Program-made: the position numbers and the translations under genes
In this document: in pieces, positions 3,973 through 36,388 of the stretch
Layout: every line of letters begins with the position of its first letter
How positions within the stretch are numbered: position 1 is the first letter of the stretch
From: an uncultured Candidatus Saccharibacteria bacterium
GTDB lineage: Bacteria > Patescibacteriota > Saccharimonadia > CAILAD01 > BJGX01
NCBI GenBank assembly: GCA_964425715.1
Contig: CAYRNO010000003.1
Location: forward strand, 1-62,792
Length of the DNA stretch: 62,792 nucleotides
Reading direction: 5' to 3'
The notes under the pieces: model-generated
Told to the model about the DNA's origin: nothing
Seen by the model: the letters and a program-made list of their open reading frames with translations, nothing else
The model's database searches: none

Positions 3973-5214
3973 ATGTGTGTTAGCATATATATTATGAAGG
4001 AAATTGCTACTAGCTCTATTCACGCACTTCAGGATTATGCTGAAGTGTTAGGTGAAGACATTATTAAAAAACTAGAGGTCAATTCGAAAGACTTAAGTAC
4101 AACTAAGATAGTAGAAATAAATTCTACTCCAGAAGGTGGAGTCGCTGAGTTATTGAGGTCGCAAATACCTATGATGCGAAGCCTGGGTCTGGATACGAGT
4201 TGGTATGTGTTGCCAGAAAACAAAAAATTCTTCGATACGACCAAAGAATTACACAACTGCCTGCAGGGACAGTGCTCTATAGATCATGGTCTCGATCTTG
4301 AGTTTTACGATGATTATTTGGAAGACGCTGTAAAAGATATACCTCCTGCAGATTTATATATTCTGCATGATCCACAGACACTAGGTCTAGCAAAACACAT
4401 CAAAAATACACCATTGGTTTGGCGTTGTCATATAGATACTACCGATGCTCATGAGCCAAGCTACCAATGGATGTCTAATCATTTTAAATATTTTTCTGAG
4501 ATCATATTCTCTCTTGAGAGTTTTGTGCACATAGATTTAAACAGCAAGATAAATATAGTCCAACCTGCCATAGACCCTTTGTCAGATAAAAATATTACTC
4601 TGAGTCCAAGCCAAATAAAATCTCATCTCAAAGAACTTGATATTGATAAAACTGAGAAGTACATACTGCAGGTTTCGAGATTTGATAAATTCAAAAATCC
4701 AATCGGTGTACTTGAGATGTATGAAAAAATACACCAAAATACAGAAGATCTTACTTGTATTTTGGCGGGTAATTTCCCGAGCGATGACCCTGAAGGTCCA
4801 GAATATTCCAAGCTTCTAAATCGAAAAATTAAAAGCCTCAAGGGTAATATCAGACTTATTACTCAGTCCAACGATTTGCAGATAAATGCATTACAGTCCA
4901 ATGCATCAGTTGTAATTCAAAACTCAACCCGAGAAGGATTTGGCCTTACCGTTTCTGAGGCGATGTGGAAGAAAAAAATAGTATTCTCGAATGAAGTTGG
5001 AGGTATCACTGAGCAGATCATCGATAACAAGACTGGATTTTATCTCACTGGCGATATACATAAAGACGCTACCAGTATAAGGCAAGTCATAGAATCTCCC
5101 GACGAATTTATAGGTATTTGTGACTCGGCACATCAACGAGTCAAAAATAGATTTGTACTACCTGTGATGATAGATGGGTATATTACAGTTTACAAAAAAG
5201 CATTAAATATATAA
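3973..5214 (+). CDS. GT4 glycosyltransferase, trehalose synthase (TreT)-like
   Basis: 413 aa. QVSRFDKFKNP and REGFGLTVSEAMWK motifs resemble TreT-type GT4 enzymes (from memory). An alternative start exists at 3994. Confidence 0.65.
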   Translation: MCVSIYIMKEIATSSIHALQDYAEVLGEDIIKKLEVNSKDLSTTKIVEINSTPEGGVAELLRSQIPMMRSLGLDTSWYVLPENKKFFDTTKELHNCLQGQCSIDHGLDLEFYDDYLEDAVKDIPPADLYILHDPQTLGLAKHIKNTPLVWRCHIDTTDAHEPSYQWMSNHFKYFSEIIFSLESFVHIDLNSKINIVQPAIDPLSDKNITLSPSQIKSHLKELDIDKTEKYILQVSRFDKFKNPIGVLEMYEKIHQNTEDLTCILAGNFPSDDPEGPEYSKLLNRKIKSLKGNIRLITQSNDLQINALQSNASVVIQNSTREGFGLTVSEAMWKKKIVFSNEVGGITEQIIDNKTGFYLTGDIHKDATSIRQVIESPDEFIGICDSAHQRVKNRFVLPVMIDGYITVYKKALNI

Positions 5215-8053: not shown

Positions 8054-8419
8054 TTAGCTGAGTATTTTATTGACGTTACTTACCAGCTTGGCCAAAGATG
8101 TATCAGTTTTTAGGATATAGCATTCAATACCTAGTTTCTCCGCAGCATCTACTTTGTCTGGTTCTTTGAAATTGGAGAATATTATTACTGGTACTTCTGA
8201 GTTCGCTTCACTCCGGATATACTCGAGTACTTCTAGTCCATTTTTTTTGGGCATTGCTATATCTAAGAGTACTAGATCAGGCTTGATACTATCAAACAAT
8301 TCAATGCCTTCTTCGCCGTCCATAGCATAAGACACCTGGTACTTGATGCCATCAAATTTAGCTTTGATGGCCTTGATAAGCGATGGGTTGTCTTCGATGA
8401 TTAATATACGATTTGCCAT
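8054..8419 (-). CDS. stand-alone response-regulator receiver domain (CheY-like)
   Basis: 121 aa. ILIIEDN...DLVLLDIAMPKKNG phospho-acceptor pattern. No output domain and no kinase nearby. Confidence 0.85.
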   Translation of the reverse strand: MANRILIIEDNPSLIKAIKAKFDGIKYQVSYAMDGEEGIELFDSIKPDLVLLDIAMPKKNGLEVLEYIRSEANSEVPVIIFSNFKEPDKVDAAEKLGIECYILKTDTSLAKLVSNVNKILS

Positions 8420-8547: not shown

Positions 8548-9813
8548 ATGTTAGGAAGAACCAGGCAATTACTACACGTATTTCAAAGAAAGAACAAAGA
8601 TCTCAAACAAGAAGATGTTGCAGAGGCTCGCAAGTATATTGAGCAATATTGGAAACATCTCAAAAGATTCAATCCCAAGCAAGATTCTACTCTGATTGCA
8701 TTGCCCAATCCTTATCTTGTACCGGCTTATGAGCCGGGTAGAGAATTTGATTTTCCAGAACAATATTATTGGGATAGTTATTTTATAGCCCAAGGAATGT
8801 TGGACAACAAACACAAAGATGTAGTAGTTGGGATGTTGGAAAATCTAATATTCATGTTTGATAGATTTCATATTATCCCAAACGCTAGTAGAAGCTATCT
8901 AATGGGTCGATCACATCCACCACTACTGAGTAGCTTTATATTTGACGTCTATCACGCATTCAATATGGATAAAAGATGGCTCAAGAAGATGCTTGATACT
9001 GCCAAGGCTGAATATGAAATCGTATGGATGGGTACGCACAAGCCGAATGTGCGAAGAGTTTATGGTGGATTGAGTAGGTACTATGATGTAAATGTACTAC
9101 ATGATTTAGCTGAAGCTGAGAGTGGGTGGGATATGACTACCAGATTCAATCGTAAATGCCTCAATTATCTACCAGTAGACCTAAACTCGCTTTTGTACAA
9201 ATACGAGACTGACTTCGCAAAAGCCGCTGAGATATTTGATAAGCCCGAGGAGCGTAAAGAATGGCTACAAAAAGCCGCAAAACGCAAGAGAGCCATCAAT
9301 ACTCTGATGTGGGACAATTTACACAAAACTTATTTTGACTACAATTTTGTAAAACATCGCCATTCGATGGTCAATTCTCTAGCTAGCTATTATCCTATGT
9401 GGGCGGGGATGATAGATAGTAGAAGAGCTGAGCATCTAGTCCGCAATCTGCGCAGATTTGAGCATAAGGGGGGATTGTCTTGCACTGAGCTTCCCACTAT
9501 AGCAAAGGTATCGCGCAATTCCGTTCCTACTCAGTGGGCTTATCCAAATGGTTGGGCGCCATTGCACTTTTTAGTGGTCAAAGGCTTGCAGCGATATGGT
9601 TATCATGCTCAGGCTCGTCGGATTGCCATGAAATGGCTGAGGAACAATTTAGAATGGTTCAATGCTCACGGTGATTTTATTGAAAAATACAATGTTGTAT
9701 CGCCTGAAAAACCACCAGTAAAAGGGGTTTATCCAAGTCAAGTGGGGTTTGGTTGGACTAATGCTATTTTTGAAAGATTTTGCCAAGAATTTATAGATAA
9801 TACCAAGGGCTAA
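8548..9813 (+). CDS. treA: alpha,alpha-trehalase (GH37)
   Basis: 421 aa. EQYYWDSYF and QWAYPNGWAPL match the two GH37 trehalase signatures. Confidence 0.85.
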   Translation: MLGRTRQLLHVFQRKNKDLKQEDVAEARKYIEQYWKHLKRFNPKQDSTLIALPNPYLVPAYEPGREFDFPEQYYWDSYFIAQGMLDNKHKDVVVGMLENLIFMFDRFHIIPNASRSYLMGRSHPPLLSSFIFDVYHAFNMDKRWLKKMLDTAKAEYEIVWMGTHKPNVRRVYGGLSRYYDVNVLHDLAEAESGWDMTTRFNRKCLNYLPVDLNSLLYKYETDFAKAAEIFDKPEERKEWLQKAAKRKRAINTLMWDNLHKTYFDYNFVKHRHSMVNSLASYYPMWAGMIDSRRAEHLVRNLRRFEHKGGLSCTELPTIAKVSRNSVPTQWAYPNGWAPLHFLVVKGLQRYGYHAQARRIAMKWLRNNLEWFNAHGDFIEKYNVVSPEKPPVKGVYPSQVGFGWTNAIFERFCQEFIDNTKG

Positions 9814-9847: not shown

Positions 9848-10333
9848 ATGAAGAAGTACAAACCATTGATTATCGGAATAGCTGCAGTAGTGTTGTCAGT
9901 TATTATTGTAGTAACTGTGATGTATTTCAAAAATTCCAATCAAGCAACAAAAGAGAATGAGTCAATCTCTCAATCCACTGCCACCTCAGACAATTCATCT
10001 ACCAGTACAGTAGTAGAATCAAATAATCCTGGTGCATATATAGACTATTCTCAAGATACTATAAAAAGCACCAAAGGTACTAAGGTATTGTTCTTCCATG
10101 CCCCATGGTGTCCACAATGCATGATGCTAGACAAAAGCATTAAGTCCGGCAATATCCCTGATGGCGTGACGATACTCAAAGTAGACTATGATAGCAATCA
10201 AGCCTTGCGTAAACAATACGGAGTCACACTGCAAACCACACTTGTTCGAGTAGATGACGATGGTAAGTTGATCAAAAAATATACTGCATATAATGAACCG
10301 ACACTACAGGCTCTAATAGATAACGTTTTATAG
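9848..10333 (+). CDS. membrane-anchored thioredoxin-family protein
   Basis: 161 aa. N-terminal TM helix and WCPQC active site. Confidence 0.85.
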   Translation: MKKYKPLIIGIAAVVLSVIIVVTVMYFKNSNQATKENESISQSTATSDNSSTSTVVESNNPGAYIDYSQDTIKSTKGTKVLFFHAPWCPQCMMLDKSIKSGNIPDGVTILKVDYDSNQALRKQYGVTLQTTLVRVDDDGKLIKKYTAYNEPTLQALIDNVL

Positions 10334-10334
10334 T

Positions 10335-11051
10335 ATGCCACTGATATTTTTAGCATTCTTGGCCGGTATCCTGACTGCCTTAGCGCCTTGTGTGCTACCA
10401 ATCATACCAGTAGTGATTGGCAGTTCAGTTGCAGATAACGACAAAAAGAAGCCATACATAGTAGTCTTTTCTTTGTTTATATCTATCATAATATTTACTC
10501 TGCTTCTTAAGGGCTCGACACTGCTTATTGATATACCAGATATATTCTGGAAGATATTGTCTGGTGTGTTTATCATCTTGTTTGGCCTGACATTAGTATT
10601 TCCCCAGTTCTGGGACAAGATTACAGTACCACTACAGTTTTATAACAAATCACAAAGGTTACTCGCCAAGTCATCGCAAAAGAAAGGCTATGGAGGGGAC
10701 ATGCTTATCGGATTCGCTTTGGGCCCAGTGTTTTCAAGCTGTAGCCCTGTGTATTTATTTATTCTTTCAGCAGTACTCCCGACTAATTTTGCGCTAGGTC
10801 TTGTGTATATTATTTCCTATGCGCTAGGTCTTTGCCTGGTATTGTTGCTAGTAGGAATCTTTGGTCAAAAGATTATTAATAAATTCGAGTGGGCTATCAA
10901 TCCATACGGATGGTTCAAGAGAGGGCTTGGTATCATCCTGGTATTGGCAGGAATATTTATTATTAGTGGTTTAGATAGAGCTATTCAGCAGTACGTGATT
11001 ACTACGGGATTTTTAGATATTACAATTATTGAAAAATCGTTCTTGAAATAA
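10335..11051 (+). CDS. ccdA: cytochrome c biogenesis CcdA/DsbD-like thiol-disulfide transporter
   Basis: 238 aa polytopic protein. LAPCVLP and SSCSPV Cys motifs. Immediately follows the thioredoxin gene. Confidence 0.85.
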   Translation: MPLIFLAFLAGILTALAPCVLPIIPVVIGSSVADNDKKKPYIVVFSLFISIIIFTLLLKGSTLLIDIPDIFWKILSGVFIILFGLTLVFPQFWDKITVPLQFYNKSQRLLAKSSQKKGYGGDMLIGFALGPVFSSCSPVYLFILSAVLPTNFALGLVYIISYALGLCLVLLLVGIFGQKIINKFEWAINPYGWFKRGLGIILVLAGIFIISGLDRAIQQYVITTGFLDITIIEKSFLK

Positions 11052-11154
11052 GCTTCATTTATCAATCTTATGATTGTAAAAAACACGTTTTTATGGTAAA
11101 TATAATCCGATCTTTGCAATACAAGACGTAACCCTTGACATAAGAGGAGTAGAG

Positions 11155-13143
11155 ATGGATATTACCGATCTCATCAAGACGATTCTCGAAAAAGGTACCT
11201 ACACCACACTAGACAGACTAGTTGATACAGAGGACTTTCAAGACAGACTGGCAGATAGAGAAAGACTTTTTGGTCTACTTGCTAATTCAGACTCTGATAT
11301 TGCTATAGCTCTCAGGGCTGGACATATTGAAATGTGCGAGCTCTTACACTCAATGCCAGAGTACTTGGCTTTGCAGCAAGCTTCACAAGGCGATATTCCG
11401 GACCCATATATGTATGAGCTTCTGGATGCAGTCGGCAGAGCATTGGTTGAAGTTGCAGGATTCTGCTTGCCAACACCTATACTTCAGGTAGCAGAGCACA
11501 TTGGTGCTCTGGACGCTGATGAGCAGATCAAATGGATCGGCCTAGTCTACGACGGATTTCAATACGCCTATGATGCTGCGAAACAAGTTCCTAAGAAGAA
11601 TAGTTCAGGCGTAGATGTGATCTGGACTATGGATACTGATAGCTTAGGTGAGATAGATATCACACAATCTGATATAGATACTATAGTTGAATACTACACA
11701 CACGCCGGAATGGTAGATCAAGCCAACACAGTGTGTAGAGCTTTGGAATGGCTCTCTGAAGAAGAATTGGATGATCAACCTGATTATTTCGATGAAGCTG
11801 TCAATCTAATCCTGGATTATTATGACAACAAGCATGTTCAAGTCTTTCCCTGGCTATATGACGTAACAGAGCTTGAGTATCCTCTAGAACGAGCCATGCC
11901 GGCTTCATATGGTGTCTTTGGCCAGTCTGGCAATATCCCTACCTGTTTTGGTATGAGTATCATGCTGACGGCTTTCGCAAGAATGACTGGGCTAAAAACC
12001 ATGTTGGTTAGTCCGATTGAGGTCGCCGATGACTTGCACAAAGAAGCTAGAGGAATTGATGCAGTTGCCAAACTAGATCATCTAGATGCAGTTGGTTTTG
12101 AGCGACAGGAATTTAGGGATAAACTCCATGCAGTTGCCAAAGAATCAGCCGACTATCAAGCTAGGATCTACGACTTCCATTACTCCATAGCCATACAGGT
12201 AAGTGATGGACGATGGGTTCATCTTGACCCGTATATGAGGCACTTTGGTGTTTTCGATGACGATTGGGAGCTACAAAGAATATTTGAGATTCTAGAGAAG
12301 TATCAATCGGTACTTCCGGGTCTCAACCTGATCAGCTTTGATGGAGGGTCTTTGAGGCGTCGACTTGTAGAGTTTATCGATGTACTCAAAAAAGCAATCA
12401 ATCAAGCTGAAAGAGTGATGCAGGCTATAATAGAGAAACCATATCCATCTGAAAATATCCTAGAATACTTTGATGATGGTATTGCCTGGCTGAGCTTTGA
12501 TGACACTGGCGATGTGATCTGGCTTACAGATACACTCAATGCACTAGAAGATACAGATGAGCTTTTTTTGAACTATCTCGCCCCATTTGGAGACCAGATT
12601 ACCCCCGAGCACGTAATAAGTCTACGAGAGTATTTTTTCTCCTCACAATTATTGGGAGATCCTCAGATCGATGATCCTGATCAGGAAATATTCAATGAAC
12701 GAATTCAGGCCTATTGGGATCTCTTCTATGATGACGAAGAATTTAAGCGAGATAAGATTGAAAACATTATCTTGCATTTCATCAGAATAGTAATAGAAAG
12801 ATGGAATACTCTCATGGGGGAAATAGAACATACTCTACTAGATCCTGTAATGCAATTCTCTTTGCCAGAGTACAATATAGCTCTTGCTGCAGTAGGTCAT
12901 GCAAGGTGCTGGACAGAAAACGATGTATCTGGTAGAGTATTGCTAACACTGTCATCGTCGCAGTTCTACTGGCACGATGCAGTTGATCTTTCCAGTGGGT
13001 ATGAGCAGAGTGATGCAGATCATTCGGATGCGCTAAGAGCAGAGCAAATGCTTCGCGCACTTCCATTTCTGCATCGTGCTTGTACTAACAAGCTGGAGTA
13101 CCTGTCGCAAATGCGAGAAACACAACCAACCAGGGAGGAATAG
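11155..13143 (+). CDS. large acidic hypothetical protein with a transglutaminase/papain-like Cys-His-Asp arrangement
   Basis: 662 aa. GNIPTCFGMSIMLTAFARMTG (Cys), then FHYSIAIQVSDGRWVHLDPY (His...Asp). SD AGAGGAG precedes the ATG. GC in the low-to-mid 40s by sampling. Confidence 0.6.
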   Translation: MDITDLIKTILEKGTYTTLDRLVDTEDFQDRLADRERLFGLLANSDSDIAIALRAGHIEMCELLHSMPEYLALQQASQGDIPDPYMYELLDAVGRALVEVAGFCLPTPILQVAEHIGALDADEQIKWIGLVYDGFQYAYDAAKQVPKKNSSGVDVIWTMDTDSLGEIDITQSDIDTIVEYYTHAGMVDQANTVCRALEWLSEEELDDQPDYFDEAVNLILDYYDNKHVQVFPWLYDVTELEYPLERAMPASYGVFGQSGNIPTCFGMSIMLTAFARMTGLKTMLVSPIEVADDLHKEARGIDAVAKLDHLDAVGFERQEFRDKLHAVAKESADYQARIYDFHYSIAIQVSDGRWVHLDPYMRHFGVFDDDWELQRIFEILEKYQSVLPGLNLISFDGGSLRRRLVEFIDVLKKAINQAERVMQAIIEKPYPSENILEYFDDGIAWLSFDDTGDVIWLTDTLNALEDTDELFLNYLAPFGDQITPEHVISLREYFFSSQLLGDPQIDDPDQEIFNERIQAYWDLFYDDEEFKRDKIENIILHFIRIVIERWNTLMGEIEHTLLDPVMQFSLPEYNIALAAVGHARCWTENDVSGRVLLTLSSSQFYWHDAVDLSSGYEQSDADHSDALRAEQMLRALPFLHRACTNKLEYLSQMRETQPTREE

Positions 13144-13147
13144 CCTG

Positions 13148-13351
13148 ATGCCCAGGCGTACCCAGAAGGACATGGCAAGAGAGATCCAGGGTCTGCTCGA
13201 CGCCGGCAAGACCCATGCGTGGATCATGGAGCATCACCCGGAGCTCGCCAACGGCTGGAATGAGGTAGCCAAGGGCAAGATTGCCCAGCGACCCCCTCGT
13301 CCACCGGGCACCATCGAGCTTCGTCGCACCGTCACCGCCGACCTTCCCTAG
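13148..13351 (+). CDS. high-GC cassette ORF A (67 aa, basic, Pro-rich tail)
   Basis: ATG at 13148 lies 8 nt after the GGGAGGA SD. About 64% GC by hand count with G/C-rich third positions. Chosen over the longer ORF-track start at 13076, which overlaps the upstream gene. Confidence 0.6.
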   Translation: MPRRTQKDMAREIQGLLDAGKTHAWIMEHHPELANGWNEVAKGKIAQRPPRPPGTIELRRTVTADLP

Positions 13352-13360
13352 GGAAGGTCG
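13339..13360. repeat. 22-nt perfect palindrome centred on CTAG, containing the TAG stop of ORF A
   Basis: cgaccttccCTAGggaaggtcg is self-complementary. The stop codon is 13349-13351. Confidence 0.9.
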
Positions 13361-13366
13361 CAGAGG

Positions 13367-13419
13367 CCTCACGAGCGAGGTAGCAGAGCAGTCTGCTACC
13401 TCGCTTAGTGGGGTTTTTT
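13367..13419 (+). terminator. bipartite hairpin plus T-run (cassette module copy A)
   Basis: CCTCAC-GA-GCGAGGTAGCAG-agcagt-CTGCTACCTCGC-TTA-GTGGGG-TTTTTT. Confidence 0.8.
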
Positions 13420-13435
13420 AATTCGATATCAACAA

Positions 13436-13463
13436 TTGACAAAAAGCAATAATAGTGTATACT
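13436..13463 (+). promoter_or_regulatory. sigma70-like promoter for ORF B
   Basis: TTGACA, 16 nt, TATACT. AT-rich sequence between two GC-rich units. GGGAGAG SD before the ATG at 13498. Confidence 0.55.
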
Positions 13464-13497
13464 AATATCGACGATCGTCATCTACAAAGGGAGAGAA

Positions 13498-13860
13498 ATG
13501 AAAACGATCGAGTTCTTGTATAAGACGTGGGCGGGCGTATTGCTGGCCTTGGTCCATACGGGGATCCTGGTCTACTGGGCCCAGCCTGGTGATCACAACA
13601 GCATGTGGGTGAACATCACACTGTCCATCTTCATGTTCCTGCCCATCGCCACGATCATCGTGCTGATCAACCGTGGCGGAATGAGCATGGCCCTCGGCCT
13701 GATCTACGCGTTGAGCTTCTCCATCTTCGTGGTGGGGCTGGCGTACTTCGATCGAGCGCTGCTCACCAGCATATACCTCGGTGTGCTGGCTTCGCTGATG
13801 TGCAACGACGTGATCCGTCATTTCATCGAGGTCGAGCAGCGACATTTCTCCGCGCCCTAG
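13498..13860 (+). CDS. high-GC cassette ORF B (120 aa, 3-4 TM membrane protein)
   Basis: About 56% GC. Roughly five-sixths of third codon positions are G/C by hand count. Hydrophobic segments throughout. Promoter, SD and terminator are all present. Confidence 0.7.
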   Translation: MKTIEFLYKTWAGVLLALVHTGILVYWAQPGDHNSMWVNITLSIFMFLPIATIIVLINRGGMSMALGLIYALSFSIFVVGLAYFDRALLTSIYLGVLASLMCNDVIRHFIEVEQRHFSAP

Positions 13861-13871
13861 GGCAAGCGCGG
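13850..13871. repeat. imperfect palindrome centred on CTAG, containing the TAG stop of ORF B
   Basis: ccgcGCCCTAGGGCaagcgcgg. Perfect 10-nt core GCCCTAGGGC plus outer complementary arms. The stop codon is 13858-13860. Confidence 0.8.
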
Positions 13872-13875
13872 ACCG

Positions 13876-13929
13876 CCTCACGGGCGGGGTGACAGAGAAA
13901 TCTGTCATCCCGCTTAGTGGGGATTTTTT
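13876..13929 (+). terminator. bipartite hairpin plus T-run (cassette module copy B)
   Basis: CCTCAC-GG-GCGGGGTGACAG-agaaat-CTGTCATCCCGC-TTA-GTGGGG-A-TTTTTT. It starts 15 nt after the stop, the same offset as copy A. Confidence 0.8.
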
Positions 13930-13942
13930 ATTTGGCTTAAGA

Positions 13943-13971
13943 TTGAAAATAACGAACTTATCTGATATATT
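13943..13971 (+). promoter_or_regulatory. sigma70-like promoter for the 150-aa ORF
   Basis: TTGAAA, 17 nt, TATATT. Confidence 0.55.
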
Positions 13972-14020
13972 TTGCTACTACAGCACCTTAGTAGCCTAGC
14001 CGACAAACGACAAAGGAAGA

Positions 14021-14473
14021 ATGATGGCAGAAGAAGATACGGTTGAAGTATATAGCCGAAATTGTTTGGTAGCAGTTGTATATGCTCCAGATCACGGCAC
14101 TGCAGTACAGGTTTTTCAGGTTGTTGAATGCGAGGTAATATCTAGCGGCAGCCCAAATACAGTTGTCGAATTTGAATCAGATGTTGAAATCAGAACCCCA
14201 CGAGATTATCTACACGTGGGTCCGATTGGTTCAGAAAACCGTCACATCTGTGTTTATCGAACTGTGGGTGGAGGACATCGAGTAACTTGTGGCTGTTGGA
14301 ACTCCGACAAAGATATAAAAGGCGGTACTATCGATGAGTTCGCCGAGCGCGTAGAGCAAGTTTATGGAGATGATGATGAGGAGCATTTCCAAAACAAGCT
14401 CTATTACGATCAATACATGGCATTTGTCGCTATGGCCAGGTCTCGTATCTCAGAGTGGCAACAAGAAGCATGA
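14021..14473 (+). CDS. hypothetical cytoplasmic protein (150 aa, acidic, Cys/His-containing)
   Basis: AAGGAAG SD. HRVTCGCWN segment. No family recognised. Confidence 0.6.
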   Translation: MMAEEDTVEVYSRNCLVAVVYAPDHGTAVQVFQVVECEVISSGSPNTVVEFESDVEIRTPRDYLHVGPIGSENRHICVYRTVGGGHRVTCGCWNSDKDIKGGTIDEFAERVEQVYGDDDEEHFQNKLYYDQYMAFVAMARSRISEWQQEA

Positions 14474-14556
14474 TATATGGCGTCTTACACAGAAATGTAG
14501 GGCGTTTTAATTTTGTGCTAAAATAAGCATAACAACGTAATAAATATGGAGTATAT

Positions 14557-15318
14557 ATGCAAAAAAAGTTAGTTTCTCTTCGTAAGTTCAATTTTGTAAT
14601 GTCAGGACTGCATTTTGCCCAGGCAGTTGCGATAATAGTACTGGCAACTGATTTCAAACTGCCTCTCAACTATACATATTTGCAATTTAATCCATCTACC
14701 CAGACCCTATTTCAACAAACCAAATTGATTGCAGATATCCCATTAGTCTGGCTGATAGTGGCTTTTTTACTGCTCTCATCTCTTGCACATCTTTTTATAG
14801 CTACAATACACAATAAAAAGTACAATCAGGATCTAGCAAAAGGCATCAATAAGGCAAGATGGATAGAGTATAGTCTATCGGCATCAGTCATGATGGTCGC
14901 TATAGCTATGCTAGTAGGAATATATGACATCGGCACATTGATACCGATATTTGCACTAATTGCAGTCATGAATCTTTGCGGACTTATCATGGAAGTACAC
15001 AATCAAACTACTGAGAAGACCAACTGGCTTAGCTACTGGGTAGGATGCTTGGCAGGAATAGTCCCATGGATAATTATCGGCATATACTTCTGGGGCAGTG
15101 CGCAAAATGGTGCTGCACCACCTACTTTTGTATACTTCATCTTCTTCTCGATATTCGTATTCTTCGATGCCTTTGCTGTCAATATGGTGTTGCAGTACAA
15201 GAAAGTTGGAAAATGGCAGGACTATCTATATGGAGAAAAAGCTTATATTATACTGAGTCTTGTAGCCAAGTCCGCATTGGCATGGCAAGTATTTGCAGGG
15301 ACTTTGCGACCTGTTTAA
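14557..15318 (+). CDS. heliorhodopsin
   Basis: 253 aa, 7 TM. RWIEYSLSASVM, GCLAGIVPW and YGEKAYIILSLVAKSALAWQVFAGTL closely match heliorhodopsin 48C12 as remembered. Schiff-base Lys at residue 238 (AAG 15268-15270). GGAG SD. Confidence 0.88.
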   Translation: MQKKLVSLRKFNFVMSGLHFAQAVAIIVLATDFKLPLNYTYLQFNPSTQTLFQQTKLIADIPLVWLIVAFLLLSSLAHLFIATIHNKKYNQDLAKGINKARWIEYSLSASVMMVAIAMLVGIYDIGTLIPIFALIAVMNLCGLIMEVHNQTTEKTNWLSYWVGCLAGIVPWIIIGIYFWGSAQNGAAPPTFVYFIFFSIFVFFDAFAVNMVLQYKKVGKWQDYLYGEKAYIILSLVAKSALAWQVFAGTLRPV

Positions 15319-15343
15319 TCTAAAGAAATAAAAGGAGTAATAT

Positions 15344-15517
15344 ATGGCAGATAAAAAAGACGACAAAGGTGGTGCTGCAGCACTATTTATACCGGCCGGA
15401 GTGATAGGCGGTATGGGGGTAGGTTTCTTGATCAATAATCTTCCAGCAGGAATGTTTATAGGTCTTGGACTGGGATTTGCAGCATTTGCGATAGTCTCTC
15501 TGGCTATAAAAAAATAA
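15344..15517 (+). CDS. small two-TM membrane protein (57 aa)
   Basis: Below the ORF-track cutoff. AAAGGAG SD 6 nt before the ATG. Sequence MADKKDDKGGAAALFIPAGVIGGMGVGFLINNLPAGMFIGLGLGFAAFAIVSLAIKK. Confidence 0.55.
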   Translation: MADKKDDKGGAAALFIPAGVIGGMGVGFLINNLPAGMFIGLGLGFAAFAIVSLAIKK

Positions 15518-15598
15518 AACTATCATAAATACAGTCACAGTAGAGCGGATGTATGGTTATTTATATTGCAATAATAATTAAGCAAAGGAGAGATAATT

Positions 15599-15997
15599 AT
15601 GACGCATAACAAGAAAATAGCCTTAGTAGCACTATCGCTTGCAACTGTAGTACTTATGAGTGGAGCAGCTGGTGTTGCACAGGCGGACAATCGCAATGTT
15701 ATGGAACAAAGAAATGAAATGAGGCAATCCAAGCACAATAAACAAAATAGGCTAGAACACCTCAATAAAAGATTAAATCAAGCTGTAGCAGACGGAAAAA
15801 TTACAGAAGAACAAAAAAATCAAATAATTGAACAGATGAAGCTACATCGTGATCAAATTCAACAAAATCGTCAGATAGAAGACAAAACAGAGCGACATGA
15901 AGCTATGAAGAGTGTGCGCGATCAAATGAGACAATGGTTGCAAGATAAGGGTATTGATCCCAAGGTCATCCTCCCAAGACCATTCTTCCATCGATAA
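15599..15997 (+). CDS. secreted helical protein (signal peptide), function unknown
   Basis: 132 aa. Signal peptide ending AQA-DN, Gln/Arg-rich helices, GGAGAG SD. Confidence 0.7.
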   Translation: MTHNKKIALVALSLATVVLMSGAAGVAQADNRNVMEQRNEMRQSKHNKQNRLEHLNKRLNQAVADGKITEEQKNQIIEQMKLHRDQIQQNRQIEDKTERHEAMKSVRDQMRQWLQDKGIDPKVILPRPFFHR

Positions 15998-16018
15998 AAA
16001 TATAGAAAGTCAACTCAG

Positions 16019-16047
16019 AAAAACTTCCACAAATGTGGGAGTTTTTC
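16019..16047 (+). terminator. intrinsic terminator
   Basis: aaaaCTTCCAC-aaat-GTGGGAGttttt. Confidence 0.75.
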
Positions 16048-16134
16048 TTATGCTTATTTAATTTTATAAATATTCGTTGTACAATGTGTTAAATAGTGTT
16101 CAATAAATAGTAATTAAAAAGGAGTTTTATAAAA

Positions 16135-20182: not shown

Positions 20183-20258
20183 GGGCCTGTAGCTCAGTGG
20201 TTAGAGCAGTCGGCTCATAACCGATTGGTCGTAGGTTCAATTCCTACCAGGCCCACCA
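20183..20258 (+). tRNA. tRNA with CAU anticodon (elongator Met or Ile2/lysidine), CCA encoded
   Basis: Hand-folded cloverleaf. Acceptor GGGCCTG/CAGGCCC, anticodon loop CTCATAA, T-loop GGTTCAATTCC. Confidence 0.85.
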
Positions 20259-24563: not shown

Positions 24564-24638
24564 CGCGGGGTAGAGCAGTGGCAGCTCGTCAGGCTCATAA
24601 CCTGGAGGTCGTAGGTTCGAATCCTACCCCCGCTACCA
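24564..24638 (+). tRNA. initiator tRNA-fMet (CAU), CCA encoded
   Basis: CGCGGGG 5-prime end with a C1 x U72 mismatch. Anticodon loop CTCATAA. T-loop GGTTCGAATCC. Confidence 0.8.
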
Positions 24639-24893: not shown

Positions 24894-26552
24894 ATGAATA
24901 AAGATATACCAGACTCTCAGTACGTTGCTGATGCGCTGTGGGTAGACGAGTCAGAACTGCAAAAAATTCTCAAAGATATTCAAGACAAATTGCAATCGGC
25001 CAAACACTCACCAGAGGCATACGGTGAACGAATGCGTGAGTATCTCAAGCGACTCACGCAAAAACAGCAAAGTCACAATCCAAACTACAAAAAGCGTTAT
25101 AGAGAATTGTCCAAACATATAGACAAGCTCACGCCGCATCAAGCCTACACTATCATTGCTAGATTCTTGGGCAACAACACCACCCAGTTCTTTGATCAGA
25201 TACCACCCAAGGCCAATCTGCAGTTTCCACGTGATCATCAACCCAAGCTTACCAGCCAAGTAGGGTGGCACTTCTTTGTTGGAAGTGTATGGGCCGAGGA
25301 CGGTCAGGAATATGGGATAGAGTTGATGTTCTTTCGCCAAGCCATATTACCCCCACAGCTTGCCAAAGAACTTGGTCTGACCGATGTAGAGAATCAAGTG
25401 ATCGAGATACAGCTCGGTATATCCAAGGCTGGTGATGTGCATCATCAAGTTGATCCAATAGTTGTGGCTGGTACATCTGGGCTTATTGAAGTAAGTAGTA
25501 AACCTTTCCGATATGCACTGGGCAAAAATATTATTGAGGGTTCAGGCAACAAAGAATTACTACCACTTACAGTAAAAGCTCGTGGTGTAGATCGTTCAGG
25601 CTCTGAGCCATTTGAGCTGGAGCTAGATCTCAAGCTCACTGGAGGCAAAGACTATCTACTGCAAGGTGATGATGGAGCTATGCCATCGGTAGCTGGTACC
25701 GGCTCTTTGTATTATTCGATACCCAATATACAAGTCAGCGCAGGTAGTACATTGAAGTATGGCGACAAAAAAGTGAAGCTCAATAAAGGCATGATGTGGT
25801 TCGATCACCAATGGGGGTTCTTGAGTGGCAACCCTCAGTCAGATGTCTTGCGAGCAGCCAACAATATATCCGCACCTGGTCCAAGCGGCTGGGATTGGTA
25901 CATGGCACAATTTGATGGAGATAGGCAGATAACAATGTTTGCTGCACATAGCAAGAAGTTTATAAGTTATTATTTTCAGTCAGGAGCCACTCCGCCACCT
26001 GTCATGACCGTGCCTGTTGCTGGTAAATACATGGATGAGCAAGGAGAACTACACAATACGTGGGGTAATCTCAAGATCACCAAGTGGGGTAAAGCTCAGA
26101 CTAGCCCCAATCCCAGCAAATATCCTATTACTCACGTGTGGCACCCCAATGAATGGCATTTTAGCTTTGATAGCACCATGCCAGCCGATATTCGTAAGTT
26201 TAGTATGACTCAAATAGTTGAGGGTGTGCAGACCAATTTCTTTGCCAATGGAGCACAGTACAATGAAGGTGCCGTAATACTCAAAGATCCAGATGGCAAA
26301 GACATAGGTCGCGGATTTGCTGAGGCAGTACAATACGCTGATACCACCGACAATGGCTTGAAGCTAGCTGGTCTAGAAGGAAGTGCTGAACTCAAAAAAG
26401 TACTTACAAATAACACTGCATCTTTGCCGCGCCGTATAAGCAGCTTGGTATATATGCTGACTCATCAAAAAGAACTAAAAGAAGTGCTCAAAAATTCTAA
26501 AGGTCTAGAGTTTTTTGGTAGTCCCAAGAAGACTCCCAGGGGCCGACACTAA
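24894..26552 (+). CDS. AttH/CrtC (carotenoid 1,2-hydratase-like) lipocalin-fold family protein with N-terminal helical extension
   Basis: 552 aa. FPRDHQP...GWHFFVGS...IELMFFR and GMMWFDHQWG match family motifs as remembered. Confidence 0.65.
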   Translation: MNKDIPDSQYVADALWVDESELQKILKDIQDKLQSAKHSPEAYGERMREYLKRLTQKQQSHNPNYKKRYRELSKHIDKLTPHQAYTIIARFLGNNTTQFFDQIPPKANLQFPRDHQPKLTSQVGWHFFVGSVWAEDGQEYGIELMFFRQAILPPQLAKELGLTDVENQVIEIQLGISKAGDVHHQVDPIVVAGTSGLIEVSSKPFRYALGKNIIEGSGNKELLPLTVKARGVDRSGSEPFELELDLKLTGGKDYLLQGDDGAMPSVAGTGSLYYSIPNIQVSAGSTLKYGDKKVKLNKGMMWFDHQWGFLSGNPQSDVLRAANNISAPGPSGWDWYMAQFDGDRQITMFAAHSKKFISYYFQSGATPPPVMTVPVAGKYMDEQGELHNTWGNLKITKWGKAQTSPNPSKYPITHVWHPNEWHFSFDSTMPADIRKFSMTQIVEGVQTNFFANGAQYNEGAVILKDPDGKDIGRGFAEAVQYADTTDNGLKLAGLEGSAELKKVLTNNTASLPRRISSLVYMLTHQKELKEVLKNSKGLEFFGSPKKTPRGRH

Positions 26553-26555
26553 ATT

Positions 26556-27239
26556 ATGTCTATTCCACCAAACACCATACCATTTTTTATTGGTTCAATA
26601 GTCACACTGATAGTGGGTATAAAATCACTTCAATCTTATCATAAACTCAAAACTCCACTAATAAGGCATTTTGCAATTACTGGCTTTTTGGCTGCAGCTG
26701 GTTTGGGGTTCAACTCTATACCATTTTATTTATCTAATAATCCTGACGTATTAAGAATATGCTTAACGTTGGGCAGGTTTTTCTTAGATATGGTGGGGTA
26801 TTGGCAGTTTTACTTAATATGGTATTTAACATGGCTCAGAAAATACCCGTTATGGTATTTTGTGATGCCTCTGACTATATTAGGCATAATAGGATTTGTT
26901 GACCAAGCTATTTTTTATCTAAACAATCCATTTATCATAAATGACGGATTGGTATTGTATAAATTCTCTGATTTTTCAAGGTATATACGTATTGTTTCAC
27001 TTATGATTGTATTTGTTGCTGGAATAGTTATAGGCATAAATGCTTTGGAGCAATCCAAAAAAAGCTCTAGAGTAAGATTAATGTCTATTTCTGTCTTGTA
27101 TATTTTTGCATCTATTGCAATTATTTATACCGTCTACTTGCAGGCCTTTAGTAATTCTTGGGTATTTCTAATGGGCTCTATAATTGCTGCAGGCATATTT
27201 TTTACAAATCCTTTCATAATTAAGAAAAAAAGAAAGTAA
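26556..27239 (+). CDS. 7-TM hypothetical membrane protein
   Basis: 227 aa with seven hydrophobic segments. Begins 4 nt after the AttH-like stop. Confidence 0.6.
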   Translation: MSIPPNTIPFFIGSIVTLIVGIKSLQSYHKLKTPLIRHFAITGFLAAAGLGFNSIPFYLSNNPDVLRICLTLGRFFLDMVGYWQFYLIWYLTWLRKYPLWYFVMPLTILGIIGFVDQAIFYLNNPFIINDGLVLYKFSDFSRYIRIVSLMIVFVAGIVIGINALEQSKKSSRVRLMSISVLYIFASIAIIYTVYLQAFSNSWVFLMGSIIAAGIFFTNPFIIKKKRK

Positions 27240-28559: not shown

Positions 28560-28636
28560 GGCTGCGTAGCTCAGTCGGTTAGAGCGCAGGACTCATAAGC
28601 CTGAGGTCGTAGGTTCGATCCCTACCGCAGCCACCA
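28560..28636 (+). tRNA. tRNA with CAU anticodon (elongator Met or Ile2), CCA encoded
   Basis: Acceptor GGCTGCG/CGCAGCC, anticodon loop CTCATAA, T-loop GGTTCGATCCC. Confidence 0.85.
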
Positions 28637-29325: not shown

Positions 29326-30657
29326 GTGTTAACAAAATTTCACAATCACCTAATAGACACCAATATATTACCCCCACATTCAAAATTACTTATTGCTGTT
29401 TCTGGTGGGGTTGATTCGATTACCTTACTACATGCCATCAACCAGATGAATAGTTTTTACAATTGGAAAATTGCAGTAGCTCATTATGATCACAAGCAAA
29501 GACCAGACAGCTATAAAGATGCTGAGCTAGTAGGGTTGTTGGCTGAGAGTTATGGCAACAAGTACTATCTCAATAAGCACGTAGATGGCATACAATCCGA
29601 AGCTGAACTTCGTCGGGCACGATATAATTTCTTAGAAAATCTTCGAGATGACATTGGTTTTGACTATATTGTAACAGCACATCATGGAGATGACAGGATA
29701 GAAACGGCAGTATTCAATACCATAAGAGGAGCTGATAGACAGGGTATGGCCTCAATGAAACGACAACGAGGCAAGTTACTCCGACCACTACTGCCATTTT
29801 CAAAAGCAGAACTTATCACTTATGCCAATTTGCAAAATCTCGCCTACAATGAAGACAGTACCAATACCAATATCGACTTTAGTAGGAACTTTGTACGCCA
29901 TGAGTTGGTACCGCTGGGAAGTATGATATACAAAAACTTTCATCATTCGTTTACCAACAAACTCAACGAGCTAGATGCGCTCAATGAATCTATCGCAACA
30001 AGGTTGAATAGTATATTGGATAGCCTAACTGTGAACCAAGATGAATATTCTATCACGCTCGACAAAGACAAATACCTGGAATTACCTCAGAATATTGCAC
30101 TGAATCTATTGGTGCATGTTTTCAATAAGTTGAAGCCGGGCATAGGGTTGAGTCGTAAAAATATCATGCAGGCCGAAAGAAATATCATCGATTCTAATCA
30201 ACCAAACAACTATCATGTAAAGGGCAACTTGCACATCGAGATAGGCTATGGTACTTTAAAAGTCACGTGTCAACCTGAAACATTCAATCACTTCAAGAAT
30301 TTCTCGACACACATTTTGACACCTGAGTATCCATTCTCAAATGATATGTTCCGTCTTTATGTCGGGGATAGCAAGAAGGATAATGTAGCAAATATCAATT
30401 TGCCAGAACAAAAACTTATAGTCCGACATCGACAAGTAGGAGACAGGGTGTATCCGCAAGGTATGACTGGTAGCAAGAAGCTACAAGACATATTTGTAGA
30501 CAAGAAGATATCTCGTGCTCACAGAGATCACTGGCCATTGGTAGTAAATGACAAAAACGAGATTTTATGGGTTCCGTTTGTAGTTACCGACAGAAGATCT
30601 GAAGCCGAAGATAGTGAAATGAAAATAATAAGCATAATTTGTGAGGTAAACAAATGA
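29326..30657 (+). CDS. tilS: tRNA(Ile)-lysidine synthase
   Basis: 443 aa. PP-loop SGGVDS. GTG start. Confidence 0.88.
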   Translation: MLTKFHNHLIDTNILPPHSKLLIAVSGGVDSITLLHAINQMNSFYNWKIAVAHYDHKQRPDSYKDAELVGLLAESYGNKYYLNKHVDGIQSEAELRRARYNFLENLRDDIGFDYIVTAHHGDDRIETAVFNTIRGADRQGMASMKRQRGKLLRPLLPFSKAELITYANLQNLAYNEDSTNTNIDFSRNFVRHELVPLGSMIYKNFHHSFTNKLNELDALNESIATRLNSILDSLTVNQDEYSITLDKDKYLELPQNIALNLLVHVFNKLKPGIGLSRKNIMQAERNIIDSNQPNNYHVKGNLHIEIGYGTLKVTCQPETFNHFKNFSTHILTPEYPFSNDMFRLYVGDSKKDNVANINLPEQKLIVRHRQVGDRVYPQGMTGSKKLQDIFVDKKISRAHRDHWPLVVNDKNEILWVPFVVTDRRSEAEDSEMKIISIICEVNK

Positions 30658-34612: not shown

Positions 34613-36388
34613 ATGAGTAGTATTCGTAATTTTTGCATTATTGCTCATATCGATCACGGCAAAAGTACACTGGCAGATCGTATGCTAGAACTTACTGGTA
34701 CTGTTGAGAAGCGAGAGATGAAGTCCCAGCTGCTCGACTCTATGGATTTGGAGAGAGAGAAAGGTATTACCATCAAACTCCAGCCAGTCCGTATGAACTG
34801 GAAAGACCATCAACTCAACCTAATAGATACACCTGGTCATGTAGATTTTAGCTATGAAGTCAGTCGGAGCTTGGCAGCCTGCGAAGGTGCTGTGTTGGTG
34901 GTAGATGCCGCTCAGGGTATACAGGCGCAGACCTTGGCCAATGTGTATCTTGCACTTGAAGCCAACCTGGAGATAATACCCGTACTCAATAAGATAGACC
35001 TACCAGCCGCCGAACCTGAAAAAGTCGCAGCTGAGATAGCATCACTTCTGGGCTGTGACCCCAGCTCTATATTGCGTATTTCTGCCAAAGATGGTTCTGG
35101 GGTAGAAACATTACTGGATAAAATTGTAGAAGATATACCTGGGCCAACAGTAAATATCGACAAGCCGCTTAGGGCTTTGGTATTTGACTCAAACTACGAT
35201 GAGTATCGCGGAGTTATCTTGTATTTCCGAATATTAGATGGAGAAATCAAGAAGAACGACCAACTCAAGCTAATAATTGCTGATAAAAACACAATGGCTG
35301 TAGATGTAGGATATTTCAGTCCTAGCATGGTTTCTAGCGGAACTATAAGCTCTGGAGAAACTGGCTATGTAGTGACCAATCTCAAATCAATTACTGATGC
35401 CAATGTCGGCGATACTATTACTCATAGCAATCATCCGGCGACCGAAGCACTACCCGGATACAAGACTATCAAGCCATATGTATATGCTGGGTTCTTTCCT
35501 AATTCCGCCGAAGACTATCCAGCTCTCAAGGATGCGCTAGAAAAGCTTACTCTCAATGACTCAGCTCTACAATACTTGCCCGAAAATTCTCAAGTATTAG
35601 GATTTGGTTTTCGGCTAGGATTTCTAGGTCTACTACACCTCGAAATCATCAAAGAGAGGATAGAGCGAGAGTTCAATATTAGCCTTGTGATTACCAATCC
35701 AAGTGTGGATTATCAAGTAGAGACCACTTTAGGTGATAAATTGGAAGTAAAAAGTGCCGCCGATCTGCCGGATGTGAGTAGGATAGCAAAGATATTAGAA
35801 CCATGGATCAGCGGTGAAATAATAGTACCCAAGGAATACCTTGGTGCAATTATCCAGCTCATTAATTCTGTTCGTGGTATACAAAAAAATCTCAGCTATA
35901 TAGATGAACACTTGGCACTTGTGAGCTTTGAAGCTCCTCTTGCCAATGTGCTTACTGACTTCTATGATGAACTCAAATCAGTTACTTCTGGATATGGGTC
36001 ATTCAATTATGATTTAGCTGATTATAGAGAGCAAGACTTGGTCCGTGTCGATATATTAGTTGCATCTGAGATGGTGGACAGTCTTAGTATGATCACTCAT
36101 CGTAGCGAAGCATTAGCATTGGGTAGAAAGATTATTGAAAAACTCAAAGACGTTATACCCCGACAATTATTTGAGATTAGCCTTCAAGCTGCCATTGGCA
36201 GTAAGATAATCGCTCGAGAAGACATCAAGGCGCTGGGCAAGAACGTAACAGCCAAACTATATGGAGGCGATGTGAGTCGTAAGAACAAGCTTCTGGACAA
36301 GCAGAAGAAGGGCAAGAAACGACTCAAGAAAATCGGTAAAGTAGATATTCCTGCTGAAGCTTTTATGGTTTTACTCAAGAAGGATTAA
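34613..36388 (+). CDS. lepA: elongation factor 4 (LepA)
   Basis: 591 aa. IRNFCIIAHIDHGKSTLADR, DTPGHVDF. Confidence 0.95.
   Translation: MSSIRNFCIIAHIDHGKSTLADRMLELTGTVEKREMKSQLLDSMDLEREKGITIKLQPVRMNWKDHQLNLIDTPGHVDFSYEVSRSLAACEGAVLVVDAAQGIQAQTLANVYLALEANLEIIPVLNKIDLPAAEPEKVAAEIASLLGCDPSSILRISAKDGSGVETLLDKIVEDIPGPTVNIDKPLRALVFDSNYDEYRGVILYFRILDGEIKKNDQLKLIIADKNTMAVDVGYFSPSMVSSGTISSGETGYVVTNLKSITDANVGDTITHSNHPATEALPGYKTIKPYVYAGFFPNSAEDYPALKDALEKLTLNDSALQYLPENSQVLGFGFRLGFLGLLHLEIIKERIEREFNISLVITNPSVDYQVETTLGDKLEVKSAADLPDVSRIAKILEPWISGEIIVPKEYLGAIIQLINSVRGIQKNLSYIDEHLALVSFEAPLANVLTDFYDELKSVTSGYGSFNYDLADYREQDLVRVDILVASEMVDSLSMITHRSEALALGRKIIEKLKDVIPRQLFEISLQAAIGSKIIAREDIKALGKNVTAKLYGGDVSRKNKLLDKQKKGKKRLKKIGKVDIPAEAFMVLLKKD

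Follow-up and report, generated by a model that had tools for sequence, protein, structure and literature searches.

A heliorhodopsin with a conserved retinal-binding site encoded in a CPR-like genome fragment

Does the open reading frame (ORF) at positions 14557..15318 of the + strand encode a heliorhodopsin (HeR), and if so, what would such a protein do in a CPR bacterium and from where would it obtain its retinal? We analyzed these questions in the whole 62,792-nucleotide stretch of DNA in which the ORF lies (hereafter the window). The ORF, which comprises 253 codons and a stop codon in the ORF list, is located exactly where a preliminary description of this DNA had placed it, and its translation, profile matches and structure matches all identify it as the HeR coding sequence. 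The protein aligned with the complete Pfam profile PF18761 (profile positions 1–242 of 242, E = 8.8e-100, 333.5 bits against a cut-off of 26.7); a significant match to the family profile is what the preliminary description had proposed to look for. It also matched the NCBIfam equivalog NF038020 "heliorhodopsin HeR" (344.8 bits; cut-off, 100). Among proteins of solved structure, matches were obtained with the HeR of Thermoplasmatales archaeon SG8-52-1 (TaHeR; PDB 6IS6, 7U55 and 7CLJ; E = 1.4e-75 with 6is6) and with 48C12, the founding member of the family (PDB 6SU3, 6SU4 and 6UH3; E = 9.5e-60 with 6su3). Because of these bit scores and E-values, the HeR identity is well past chance. The likeness to 48C12 on which the preliminary description relied is real (47% identity), but among the solved structures TaHeR is closer (53% identity over 242 aligned residues). 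The three peptides quoted in that description were found at residues 101, 163 and 226, and the 48C12 strings given there for comparison proved correct against PDB 6su3.

The predicted fold leads to the same identification. The AF2 model (pLDDT 84.4, pTM 0.80) is that of a seven-helix opsin in which helices 1 and 2 are linked by the long β-hairpin specific to HeRs (strands 34–45 and 50–62). TaHeR (6is6) was the top Foldseek match of this model with a TM-score of 0.91, and the 10 best matches were all HeR structures (TM 0.84–0.91); type-1 rhodopsins scored 0.55–0.7 with 8–17% identity. On the predicted cytoplasmic loops (N-terminal side) we counted 12 Lys and Arg residues versus 3 on the outside, which by the positive-inside rule predicts a cytoplasmic N-terminus and an external C-terminus, i.e., the inverted orientation that had been anticipated. 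A type-1 microbial rhodopsin is ruled out by this charge bias, by the lack of a match to Bac_rhodopsin (PF01036) at E ≤ 0.01, by TM-scores of 0.55–0.69 at 8–17% identity and by the motif of helix 7, which is SxxxK in HeRs and DxxxK in type-1 rhodopsins (PMC9166423). Here S234 and K238 align with S237 and K241 of 48C12 and with S234 and K238 of TaHeR, and the motif is invariant in 73 relatives. Two curated profiles, the alignment with solved structures and the predicted fold thus agree in supporting that the ORF encodes a heliorhodopsin, as the preliminary description had claimed.

The residues expected to hold the chromophore are retained. The Schiff-base Lys is K238 (codon AAG, 15268..15270, in S234-L-V-A-K238; K241 in 48C12 and K238 in TaHeR), and the single counterion Glu in helix 3 is E104 (codon GAG, 14866..14868, in RWIEYS; E107 in 48C12 and E108 in TaHeR). 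The two Schiff-base cavity His are also kept, with H19 encoded at 14611..14613 (H23 in 48C12) and H78 at 14788..14790 (H80 in 48C12, H82 in TaHeR), both codon positions being counted from the first nucleotide of the ORF. All 73 relatives share each of these 4 residues. The Lys, its codon and both His had been correctly named, and the counterion, given as E103, does align with its counterparts in 48C12 and TaHeR once renumbered as E104. The roles of the counterion Glu and of the cavity His pair have been described for 48C12 (PMC9726877), and no residue of the hydrogen-bond network published in that work is missing: N12, H19, Q22, S74, H78, Y89, R101, E104, Y105, S108, E146, E227, S234, K238 and W243 are all present. 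Outside this fully conserved network, S112, N138, F162, N207 and Q213 of 48C12 are replaced by A, I, Y, D and M, respectively. The protein shares with TaHeR the SLVAK motif, the E/H/H cluster, the Tyr at the first aromatic position of the fenestration (Y164 in TaHeR, Y160 here) and the A113/M210-type residues. Unlike TaHeR, which is archaeal, the protein from this CPR bacterium has D204 instead of N204, I135 instead of T139 and an EF loop that is longer by 4 residues.

These residues also bear on whether the protein could transport ions, driven or gated by light as in the viral V2HeR3, and thereby supply or dissipate proton-motive force. Proton transport by a viral HeR is reported (PMC9448325), and CPR cells have few means of making a proton gradient (PMC9296517), which would give such an activity a use. 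Yet the protein groups with TaHeR (53%) and 48C12 (47%), and the HeR Schiff-base proton, although released, does not go toward the bulk surface, with no light-induced pH change observed (PMC9726877). Furthermore, R101 and its salt-bridge partners E146 and E227, which in 48C12 fix the Arg (PMC9726877), are conserved, and the protein has the fenestration motif, whose absence from the ion-transporting viral subfamily is reported in a preprint. We thus regard transport as very improbable.

The lateral fenestration itself was compared by sequence alignment with criteria taken from a preprint (48C12 positions 162, 166, 169, 206 and 210, plus Asn 207; bioRxiv 10.1101/2025.11.27.691015). Y160, C164, G167, F203 and A207 are retained, and an Asp is found at position 204 (codon 15166..15168) in place of the conserved fenestration Asn (N207 in 48C12, N204 in TaHeR). 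Among the 73 relatives scored, 59 have Asn and 3 have Asp at this position; the conserved Asn is proposed to act at the lateral fenestration (bioRxiv 10.1101/2025.11.27.691015). A possible alternative is a light-harvesting HeR with 2 antennas, in which an exogenous xanthophyll bound at the fenestration, in the outer leaflet, would pass energy to retinal. The carotenoid-site motif of the same preprint, defined on 48C12 as an aromatic pair (162/206), Gly 169 and small residues at 166/210, occurs in 91% of HeRs (bioRxiv 10.1101/2025.11.27.691015) and is matched here by Y160, F203, G167, C164 and A207. In an episymbiont both pigments would be host-derived, and since this proposal concerns the input side it would be compatible with a sensory output. 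However, carotenoid binding by HeRs rests in the preprint on docking and sequence motifs, the Asn proposed there to position the carotenoid is D204 in this protein, and non-viral HeRs have no known energy-using output. An antenna function is therefore unlikely in our view, though less so than ion transport.

The host assignment is relevant to the source of retinal. The top genome matches of the HeR (61–69% identity) and of LepA (66–81%) are MAGs of Candidatus Saccharibacteria or Patescibacteria, in line with the CPR-like genome proposed in the preliminary description. A saccharibacterial host, as suggested by these HeR and LepA matches, would fit the restriction of HeRs to organisms that have no outer membrane (monoderm). 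Among GTDB species representatives, the closest complete HeR is 69% identical, and a partial one (L006) is 92% identical. At 90% identity or above, 12 proteins fall into one cluster with it, only 2 of which are named, both as "hypothetical protein"; beyond this cluster, metagenome proteins reach 73% identity. With the nearest complete HeR at 69% and metagenome proteins outside the cluster at 73%, the locus therefore belongs to a separate species-level lineage. Relatives named "heliorhodopsin HeR [Candidatus Saccharibacteria bacterium]" by NCBI are 62–65% identical. HeRs of Saccharimonadia have been described before, with 80 occurrences that likewise carry the SLVAK motif (Chiriac et al. 2022, PMC9166423), and this protein shares lineage, family, motif and predicted N-in orientation with those Saccharimonadia/CPR HeRs. 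It is one more well-preserved HeR in a lineage where HeRs are already known to be common.

We searched the window for genes that could supply retinal. No Pfam match to Blh/BCD, RPE65/CCD or CrtE/B/I/Y was found in the 63 kb; of the 76 non-overlapping ORFs with at least 50 amino acids, 66 were scanned, the other 10 being 50–95 amino acids long or overlapping tRNA genes. The statement of the preliminary description that the window holds no retinal-biosynthesis gene stands for the ORFs scanned, and a second, more lenient scan (E ≤ 1) of those membrane proteins in the window that had no annotation did not detect a retinal or carotenoid gene either. Rhodopsin-bearing Saccharibacteria are reported to lack blh and proposed to depend on external retinal (Jaffe et al. 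2022, PMC9296517). Saccharibacterial type-1 rhodopsins (SacRs) load external retinal within 30 s, and TaHeR takes it up rapidly through a lateral opening in the apoprotein (PMC9296517). SacRs share with our protein the host group and the proposed dependence on external retinal; they differ in being type-1, DTS-motif outward proton pumps of the usual orientation, whereas this HeR has no PF01036 match. From the content of the 63 kb window and these published data, the cell probably scavenges retinal from neighbours, its host or the surroundings. A HeR in Saccharibacteria that do not synthesize their own retinal is a combination already published (PMC9166423 and PMC9296517), and a CPR episymbiont that depends on others for its chromophore would be well suited to the study of HeR signalling targets and of the movement of retinal between cells. 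A gene for a CrtC/AttH-like lipocalin is located 10 kb downstream of the HeR gene. This product, the sole "Crt" match in the window, was considered and discarded as a retinal-forming enzyme.

A window without a retinal pathway, and a stand-alone HeR gene without a fixed partner, could also be expected if the protein were a relic, either an opsin that is idle for want of retinal or one with a light-independent structural role. Comparison of the HeR gene with 7 strain loci gave dN/dS values of 0.03–0.05, and strong purifying selection thus acts on it. Together with the retention of every chromophore-site residue, with the persistence of the gene in many Saccharibacteria MAGs despite genome reduction (PMC9166423) and with the 30-s uptake of external retinal by saccharibacterial type-1 rhodopsins (PMC9296517), this leaves the relic reading hardly credible.

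The analysis instead favours a functional saccharibacterial HeR that binds scavenged retinal and modulates a partner rather than moving ions, which we consider probable; its most likely role would be that of a slow-photocycle light sensor or regulator. By analogy with TaHeR and 48C12, K238 would bind all-trans-retinal covalently, and light would isomerize the retinal, upon which the Schiff-base proton would pass to the E104/H78/H19 cluster and stay in the protein. The long-lived intermediate would then alter the cytoplasmic and outer surfaces and modulate a partner protein without ion movement. Retinal from the host or the surroundings could enter through the lateral fenestration, where Y160, C164, G167, F203 and A207 are kept.

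Three other members of the family provide the model for a HeR that binds and modulates another protein in response to light. Published work describes regulation of glutamine synthetase by AbHeR (PMC9529153), of a photolyase by TfHeR (PMC9769723) and of the ABC transporter OmrDE by OcHeR (PMC11109279); in each case the gene of the partner studied lies beside the HeR gene or in its vicinity. Unlike in those systems, none is adjacent here: glutamine synthetase, photolyase, an OmrDE-type ABC transporter and histidine kinase were found neither beside the HeR gene nor elsewhere in the window (Pfam, E ≤ 1e-5). To extend the comparison, ORFs were called and clustered in 80 related loci. The top neighbour clusters encode an ABC ATPase, a PD-(D/E)XK nuclease, SerRS, a class-II tRNA synthetase of the Asp/Lys/Asn type and MsrA, followed by a hibernation factor, BipA, RsmE and a sortase, and no cluster lies near the HeR gene in more than 8 of the 80 loci. 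ABC ATPases reach this number (8/80) and are absent beside the HeR gene in the window; MsrA is present in 7. A conserved neighbourhood thus fails as a pointer to the partner and, because no neighbour is conserved across the family, the output of the protein is probably lineage-specific.

Redox repair is the sole neighbourhood theme, and a weak one, made up of MsrA in 7 loci and of thioredoxin (Trx) and DsbD in the window and 2 others. In the window, a receiver-only response regulator (8054..8419), Trx (9848..10333) and DsbD (10335..11051) are encoded upstream of the HeR gene, and Trx and DsbD adjoin it in L014 and L017 as well. Redox and two-component genes are enriched around HeRs (PMC8612252). 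HeRs have been linked in the literature to protection from light-induced oxidative stress, and the upstream Trx/DsbD pair agrees with this.

The nearest candidate partners in this lineage are encoded immediately downstream. Between an upstream 150-amino acid ORF and the HeR gene, a pattern scan found a terminator-like hairpin (14479..14506, + strand; consensus match only), which suggests that HeR starts its own transcript. A possible extended -10 element, TGcTAAAAT (14516–14524), and a ribosome-binding site, GGAG (14548–14551), were read by eye before the ATG (14516..14551, + strand); the promoter scan did not list this -10 element because it has no -35 match. An ORF for a Gly-rich hydrophobic protein of 57 amino acids, with 2 membrane spans suggested by its sequence (15344..15517, + strand), starts 25 nucleotides past the HeR stop codon, has its own AAGGAG and is separated from HeR by no terminator, an arrangement from which it is probably co-transcribed. 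It matched no family in any of the libraries searched and was found in close relatives only (L006, 91% identity; L081; strain loci L162–L174), which rules it out as a general HeR partner. Possibly the last gene of the unit is the ORF at 15599..15997 (+ strand), whose 132-amino acid product looks secreted, with a signal-peptide-like hydrophobic N-terminus followed by a polar, K/E/Q-rich, helical-looking stretch. Its match to NCBIfam Spy (E = 5.7e-5; 23 bits, below the cut-off of 174) is a hint of the chaperone Spy but not membership. This ORF is kept in L006 and the strain loci, and a terminator-like hairpin with a 14-bp stem followed by T's comes after it (16017..16048, + strand).

The unit formed by the HeR, 57- and 132-amino acid ORFs is common to close strains only. 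It might couple light and the supply of retinal or carotenoid from the host to a response at the surface of the symbiont, either of the envelope or to oxidative stress, with D204 altering pigment uptake or colour; we hold this proposal to be quite doubtful, more so than an antenna function. If it were true, the pigment-dependent sensor would also signal contact with a pigment-producing host. The locus raises no new question, and it provides a clean candidate for expression together with 2 small, probably co-transcribed genes as possible partners of the HeR.

Directly upstream of the HeR gene lies a strain-variable, GC-rich cassette region. We considered the 2 GC-rich cassettes as integron cassettes and set this reading aside, as the window contains no integrase-type domain (Pfam, E ≤ 1e-5), the ends of the hairpins depart from the attC R''/R' consensus, and a terminator-like T-run comes after each hairpin. 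The hairpin pattern of the cassettes had no exact match in 185,579 GTDB genomes. A defence or phage origin of the block was likewise discarded: PADLOC detected nothing and PHROGs gave only a function-unknown match for the 150-amino acid ORF. An assembly chimera at the right-hand junction of the GC jump is rejected by an independent Logan assembly (L081), which spans 13519–15918 at 99.75% identity, and the same arrangement across this junction is present in several other samples.

The open reading frame (ORF) at 14557-15318 on the + strand encodes a protein of 253 residues that falls within the heliorhodopsin (HeR) family. It gave a significant full-length match to the Pfam profile PF18761 (Heliorhodopsin; E = 8.8e-100, positions 1-242 of 242 covered) and scored 344.8 bits against the NCBIfam equivalog NF038020 ("heliorhodopsin HeR"), for which the curated cut-off is 100. 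No type-1 rhodopsin profile matched the protein in the profile search. Among solved structures, the best match was TaHeR, the HeR of Thermoplasmatales archaeon SG8-52-1 (PDB 6is6, E = 1.4e-75), followed by the founding member of the family, 48C12 (PDB 6su3, E = 9.5e-60), with identities over aligned columns of 52.9% and 46.6%, respectively. A preliminary description of this DNA had named the protein a HeR by comparison with 48C12. The 3 peptide stretches that it quoted were found at residues 101, 163, and 226, and the 48C12 strings set beside them are those of PDB 6su3. The Schiff-base lysine K238 (AAG, 15268-15270) was verified, and both histidines, H19 and H78, are there. The counterion glutamate assigned to the RWIEYS motif is also present, but its number is E104 (GAG, 14866-14868) and not E103. 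With this correction, the observation of a HeR is confirmed and the interpretation that accompanied it is supported.

The 48C12 residues named in PMC9726877 were mapped onto the protein with two alignments, one from HMMER and one from MAFFT that included 73 relatives. The network of 48C12 is complete (N12, H19, Q22, S74, H78, Y89, R101, E104, Y105, S108, E146, E227, S234, K238, and W243), and 13 of these 15 residues are invariant among the 73 relatives, Q22 and S74 each being substituted in one. The motif in helix 7, SLVAK, is one of the 3 commonest in CPR HeRs, the others being SLIAK and SFVAK (Chiriac et al. 2022, PMC9166423). Retained as well are Y160, C164, G167, F203, and A207, which correspond to 48C12 positions 162, 166, 169, 206, and 210, the residues that a 2025 preprint (10.1101/2025.11.27.691015) assigns to the lateral fenestration. 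Adjoining the fenestration, D204 (codon 15166-15168) takes the place of a conserved Asn (N207 in 48C12, N204 in TaHeR), and Asp occupies this position in only 3 of the 73 relatives. Because the residue sits at the proposed site of retinal uptake and carotenoid binding, D204 could alter pigment uptake or colour. A carotenoid-antenna role of HeRs has been put forward in a preprint; use of an exogenous carotenoid in this way would concern the input side and be compatible with sensing, and we regard it as rather improbable for this protein.

The hydropathy profile was used to position the 7 helices. In this arrangement 12 Lys and Arg residues fall on the side of the N-terminus (N-terminus and loops together) and 3 on the opposite side, so a cytoplasmic N-terminus is predicted by the positive-inside rule. 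Such an inverted orientation, the defining one of the family, is what the preliminary description expected and what is described for other HeRs from CPR genomes (reversed orientation, PMC9166423). The AlphaFold2 model, built with 38 sequences (mean pLDDT 84.4, pTM 0.80), contains 2 long strands between helices 1 and 2 (residues 34-45 and 50-62). The ten best matches of this model in a Foldseek search of the PDB were all HeR structures, headed by TaHeR (TM 0.91, rmsd 2.3 Å), and type-1 rhodopsins ranked after them (TM 0.55-0.69, identity 8-17%). Strain variants of the gene in 7 loci from other samples differ by 2-4 amino-acid changes at ~3% nucleotide divergence, and dN/dS is 0.03-0.05 (NG86); because of this ratio, a functionless relic is unlikely. 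The GC content of the gene (0.396) equals that of the whole window, and a GGAG lies 5 nt 5' of the ATG. Altogether, these results show an intact, selected HeR with a complete chromophore site.

With one genome per GTDB species, the best matches of the protein were in Candidatus Saccharibacteria and Saccharimonadales MAGs (61-69% identity), with an additional partial match of 92% in a Patescibacteria MAG. The LepA protein of the window (34613-36388) matched ten Saccharibacteria and Patescibacteria MAGs at 66-81%, and other phyla at no more than 57%. The remainder of the window holds 7 tRNA genes and ordinary housekeeping genes, which include enolase, TreT, trehalase, TldD/PmbA, LexA, FtsH, MurJ, LepA, HrcA-GrpE-DnaK-DnaJ, RimK, ComEC, RuvC/RuvB, PilM with pilin, RNase Y, HU, and MgtE. 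The HeR and LepA matches and this gene content support the earlier claim of a CPR-like genome. HeRs of this kind have been described: a screen of 1326 CPR genomes found them mainly in Saccharimonadia, with 80 occurrences (PMC9166423). At E <= 1e-20 our protein search gave at least 7993 relatives, and NCBI names several of them "heliorhodopsin HeR [Candidatus Saccharibacteria bacterium]". Given these precedents, the protein was identified correctly, as one more member of a group already described, and we infer its mechanism by homology. The 90% cluster of the protein has 12 members across NCBI, ENA, JGI, and Logan, and both named ones are called "hypothetical protein".

By homology, retinal would be bound at K238, and photoisomerisation would be followed by proton transfer to the E104/H78/H19 cluster, the proton staying inside the protein, and by a long-lived state that changes the protein surfaces (PMC9726877). 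The output may be modulation of another protein, as reported with other HeRs for glutamine synthetase (PMC9529153), photolyase (PMC9769723), and an ABC transporter (PMC11109279). Ion transport, known from viral HeRs, is unlikely here because the sequence is of the TaHeR/48C12 type and the Arg is held by salt bridges. Pfam scans of 66 of the 76 non-overlapping window ORFs of at least 50 aa found no Blh/BCD, CCD/RPE65, or CrtE/B/I/Y within the 63 kb, and scanning the window's membrane proteins without annotation again under lenient settings gave no retinal or carotenoid gene either, in line with the earlier statement that the window has no retinal-biosynthesis gene. This agrees with the rhodopsin-bearing Saccharibacteria of Jaffe et al. 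2022 (PMC9296517), in which blh was not found and for which retinal uptake from Actinobacteria hosts was proposed; the same paper remarks that TaHeR rapidly binds external retinal via an opening in the apoprotein. The window and this literature suggest that the retinal would be scavenged.

A 552-aa protein with CrtC/AttH two-domain (two-lipocalin) architecture is encoded at 24894-26552 (PF07143, E 5e-19; PF17186, E 1e-4; PDB 2ich "putative AttH", E 5.6e-6), which is unexpected, since the part of the genome seen here shows no carotenoid pathway. A hydrophobic protein of 227 aa without annotation, apparently a multi-pass membrane protein, is encoded 4 nt 3' of it (26556-27239). Three Saccharibacteria MAGs, 2 of them with a HeR as well, hold relatives at 80% identity; a link to pigment handling would be speculation.

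Downstream of the HeR gene, a 57-aa Gly-rich hydrophobic ORF (15344-15517) with its own AAGGAG starts 25 nt after the stop codon, and a 132-aa ORF (15599-15997) begins 81 nt past it. Because hairpins flank the trio (terminator-like at 14479-14506, between the upstream 150-aa ORF and HeR; strong and with T's at 16017-16048, after the 132-aa ORF) and no terminator was found between HeR and the 57-aa ORF, a single transcript of the 3 genes is plausible from the sequence. The trio is kept in L006, the locus of the 92% partial match, and in all strain-level loci, and is not found in more distant Saccharibacteria. The 132-aa ORF has a hydrophobic, signal-peptide-like N-terminus followed by a polar K/E/Q-rich remainder, and faintly resembles Spy, a chaperone of the periplasm (NCBIfam E 5.7e-5 and 23 bits, well under the cut-off).

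In a comparison of 80 related loci, the gene clusters located within 6 genes of HeR were each found there in 8 loci at most; the commonest are housekeeping genes, plus MsrA, which lies within 3 genes of HeR in 7. In the window, thioredoxin and DsbD (9848-11051) lie upstream of HeR; they directly adjoin it, in different orientation, in 2 other Saccharibacteria loci (L014 and L017). A receiver-only response regulator is located 6 kb upstream. These neighbours are consistent with published work (PMC8612252) in which genes for redox and two-component functions are enriched around HeRs; they hint weakly at a redox-repair theme and single out no partner. Immediately 5' of HeR, the 150-aa ORF (14021-14473) is kept in all strain loci; it has no Pfam or NCBIfam match and matches the phage protein family phrog_20532 (function unnamed) with E 6e-14.

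Just upstream of HeR, GC content rises to 0.55-0.60 over ~13050-13950 (window, 0.40). This region includes a 67-aa ORF (13148-13351, +, GC 0.64) and a hydrophobic, probably membrane-spanning 120-aa ORF (13498-13860, +, GC 0.57), each followed by a long hairpin with a T-run (~13367-13420 and ~13876-13930). The 2 hairpins are clearly related, differing at 3 stem pairs (2 compensatory, one A-U to G-U), and fold with -42.5 and -36.9 kcal/mol (z-scores -9.3 and -6.8); no exact match to their pattern was found in GTDB genomes. The composition of this region suggests foreign origin, and no family, defence, or phage library searched named the proteins of this upstream block. Strong promoter-like sites lie 5' of the 120-aa and 150-aa ORFs. 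The cassette with the 120-aa ORF comes immediately after DsbD in strain loci L170-L174. The window and L162-L164 have an extra block of 2.36 kb (~11072-13434) inserted just 5' of the -35 box of this cassette, made up of a 662-aa acidic ORF (function unnamed), the 67-aa ORF, and one hairpin. This block is a strain-level presence/absence polymorphism.

Elsewhere in the window, the TreT (trehalose synthase) and trehalase genes (3973-5214 and 8548-9813) lie within 6 kb of each other and make up a compact module for trehalose synthesis and breakdown in this reduced genome. A stretch of 8.5 kb holds 3 tRNA genes whose anticodon is CAT (20183-20258, 24564-24638, and 28560-28636), and TilS (29326-30657) is the second ORF 3' of the third, with an unannotated 177-aa ORF between them. 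One of the 3 is probably the tRNA-Ile2 modified by TilS.
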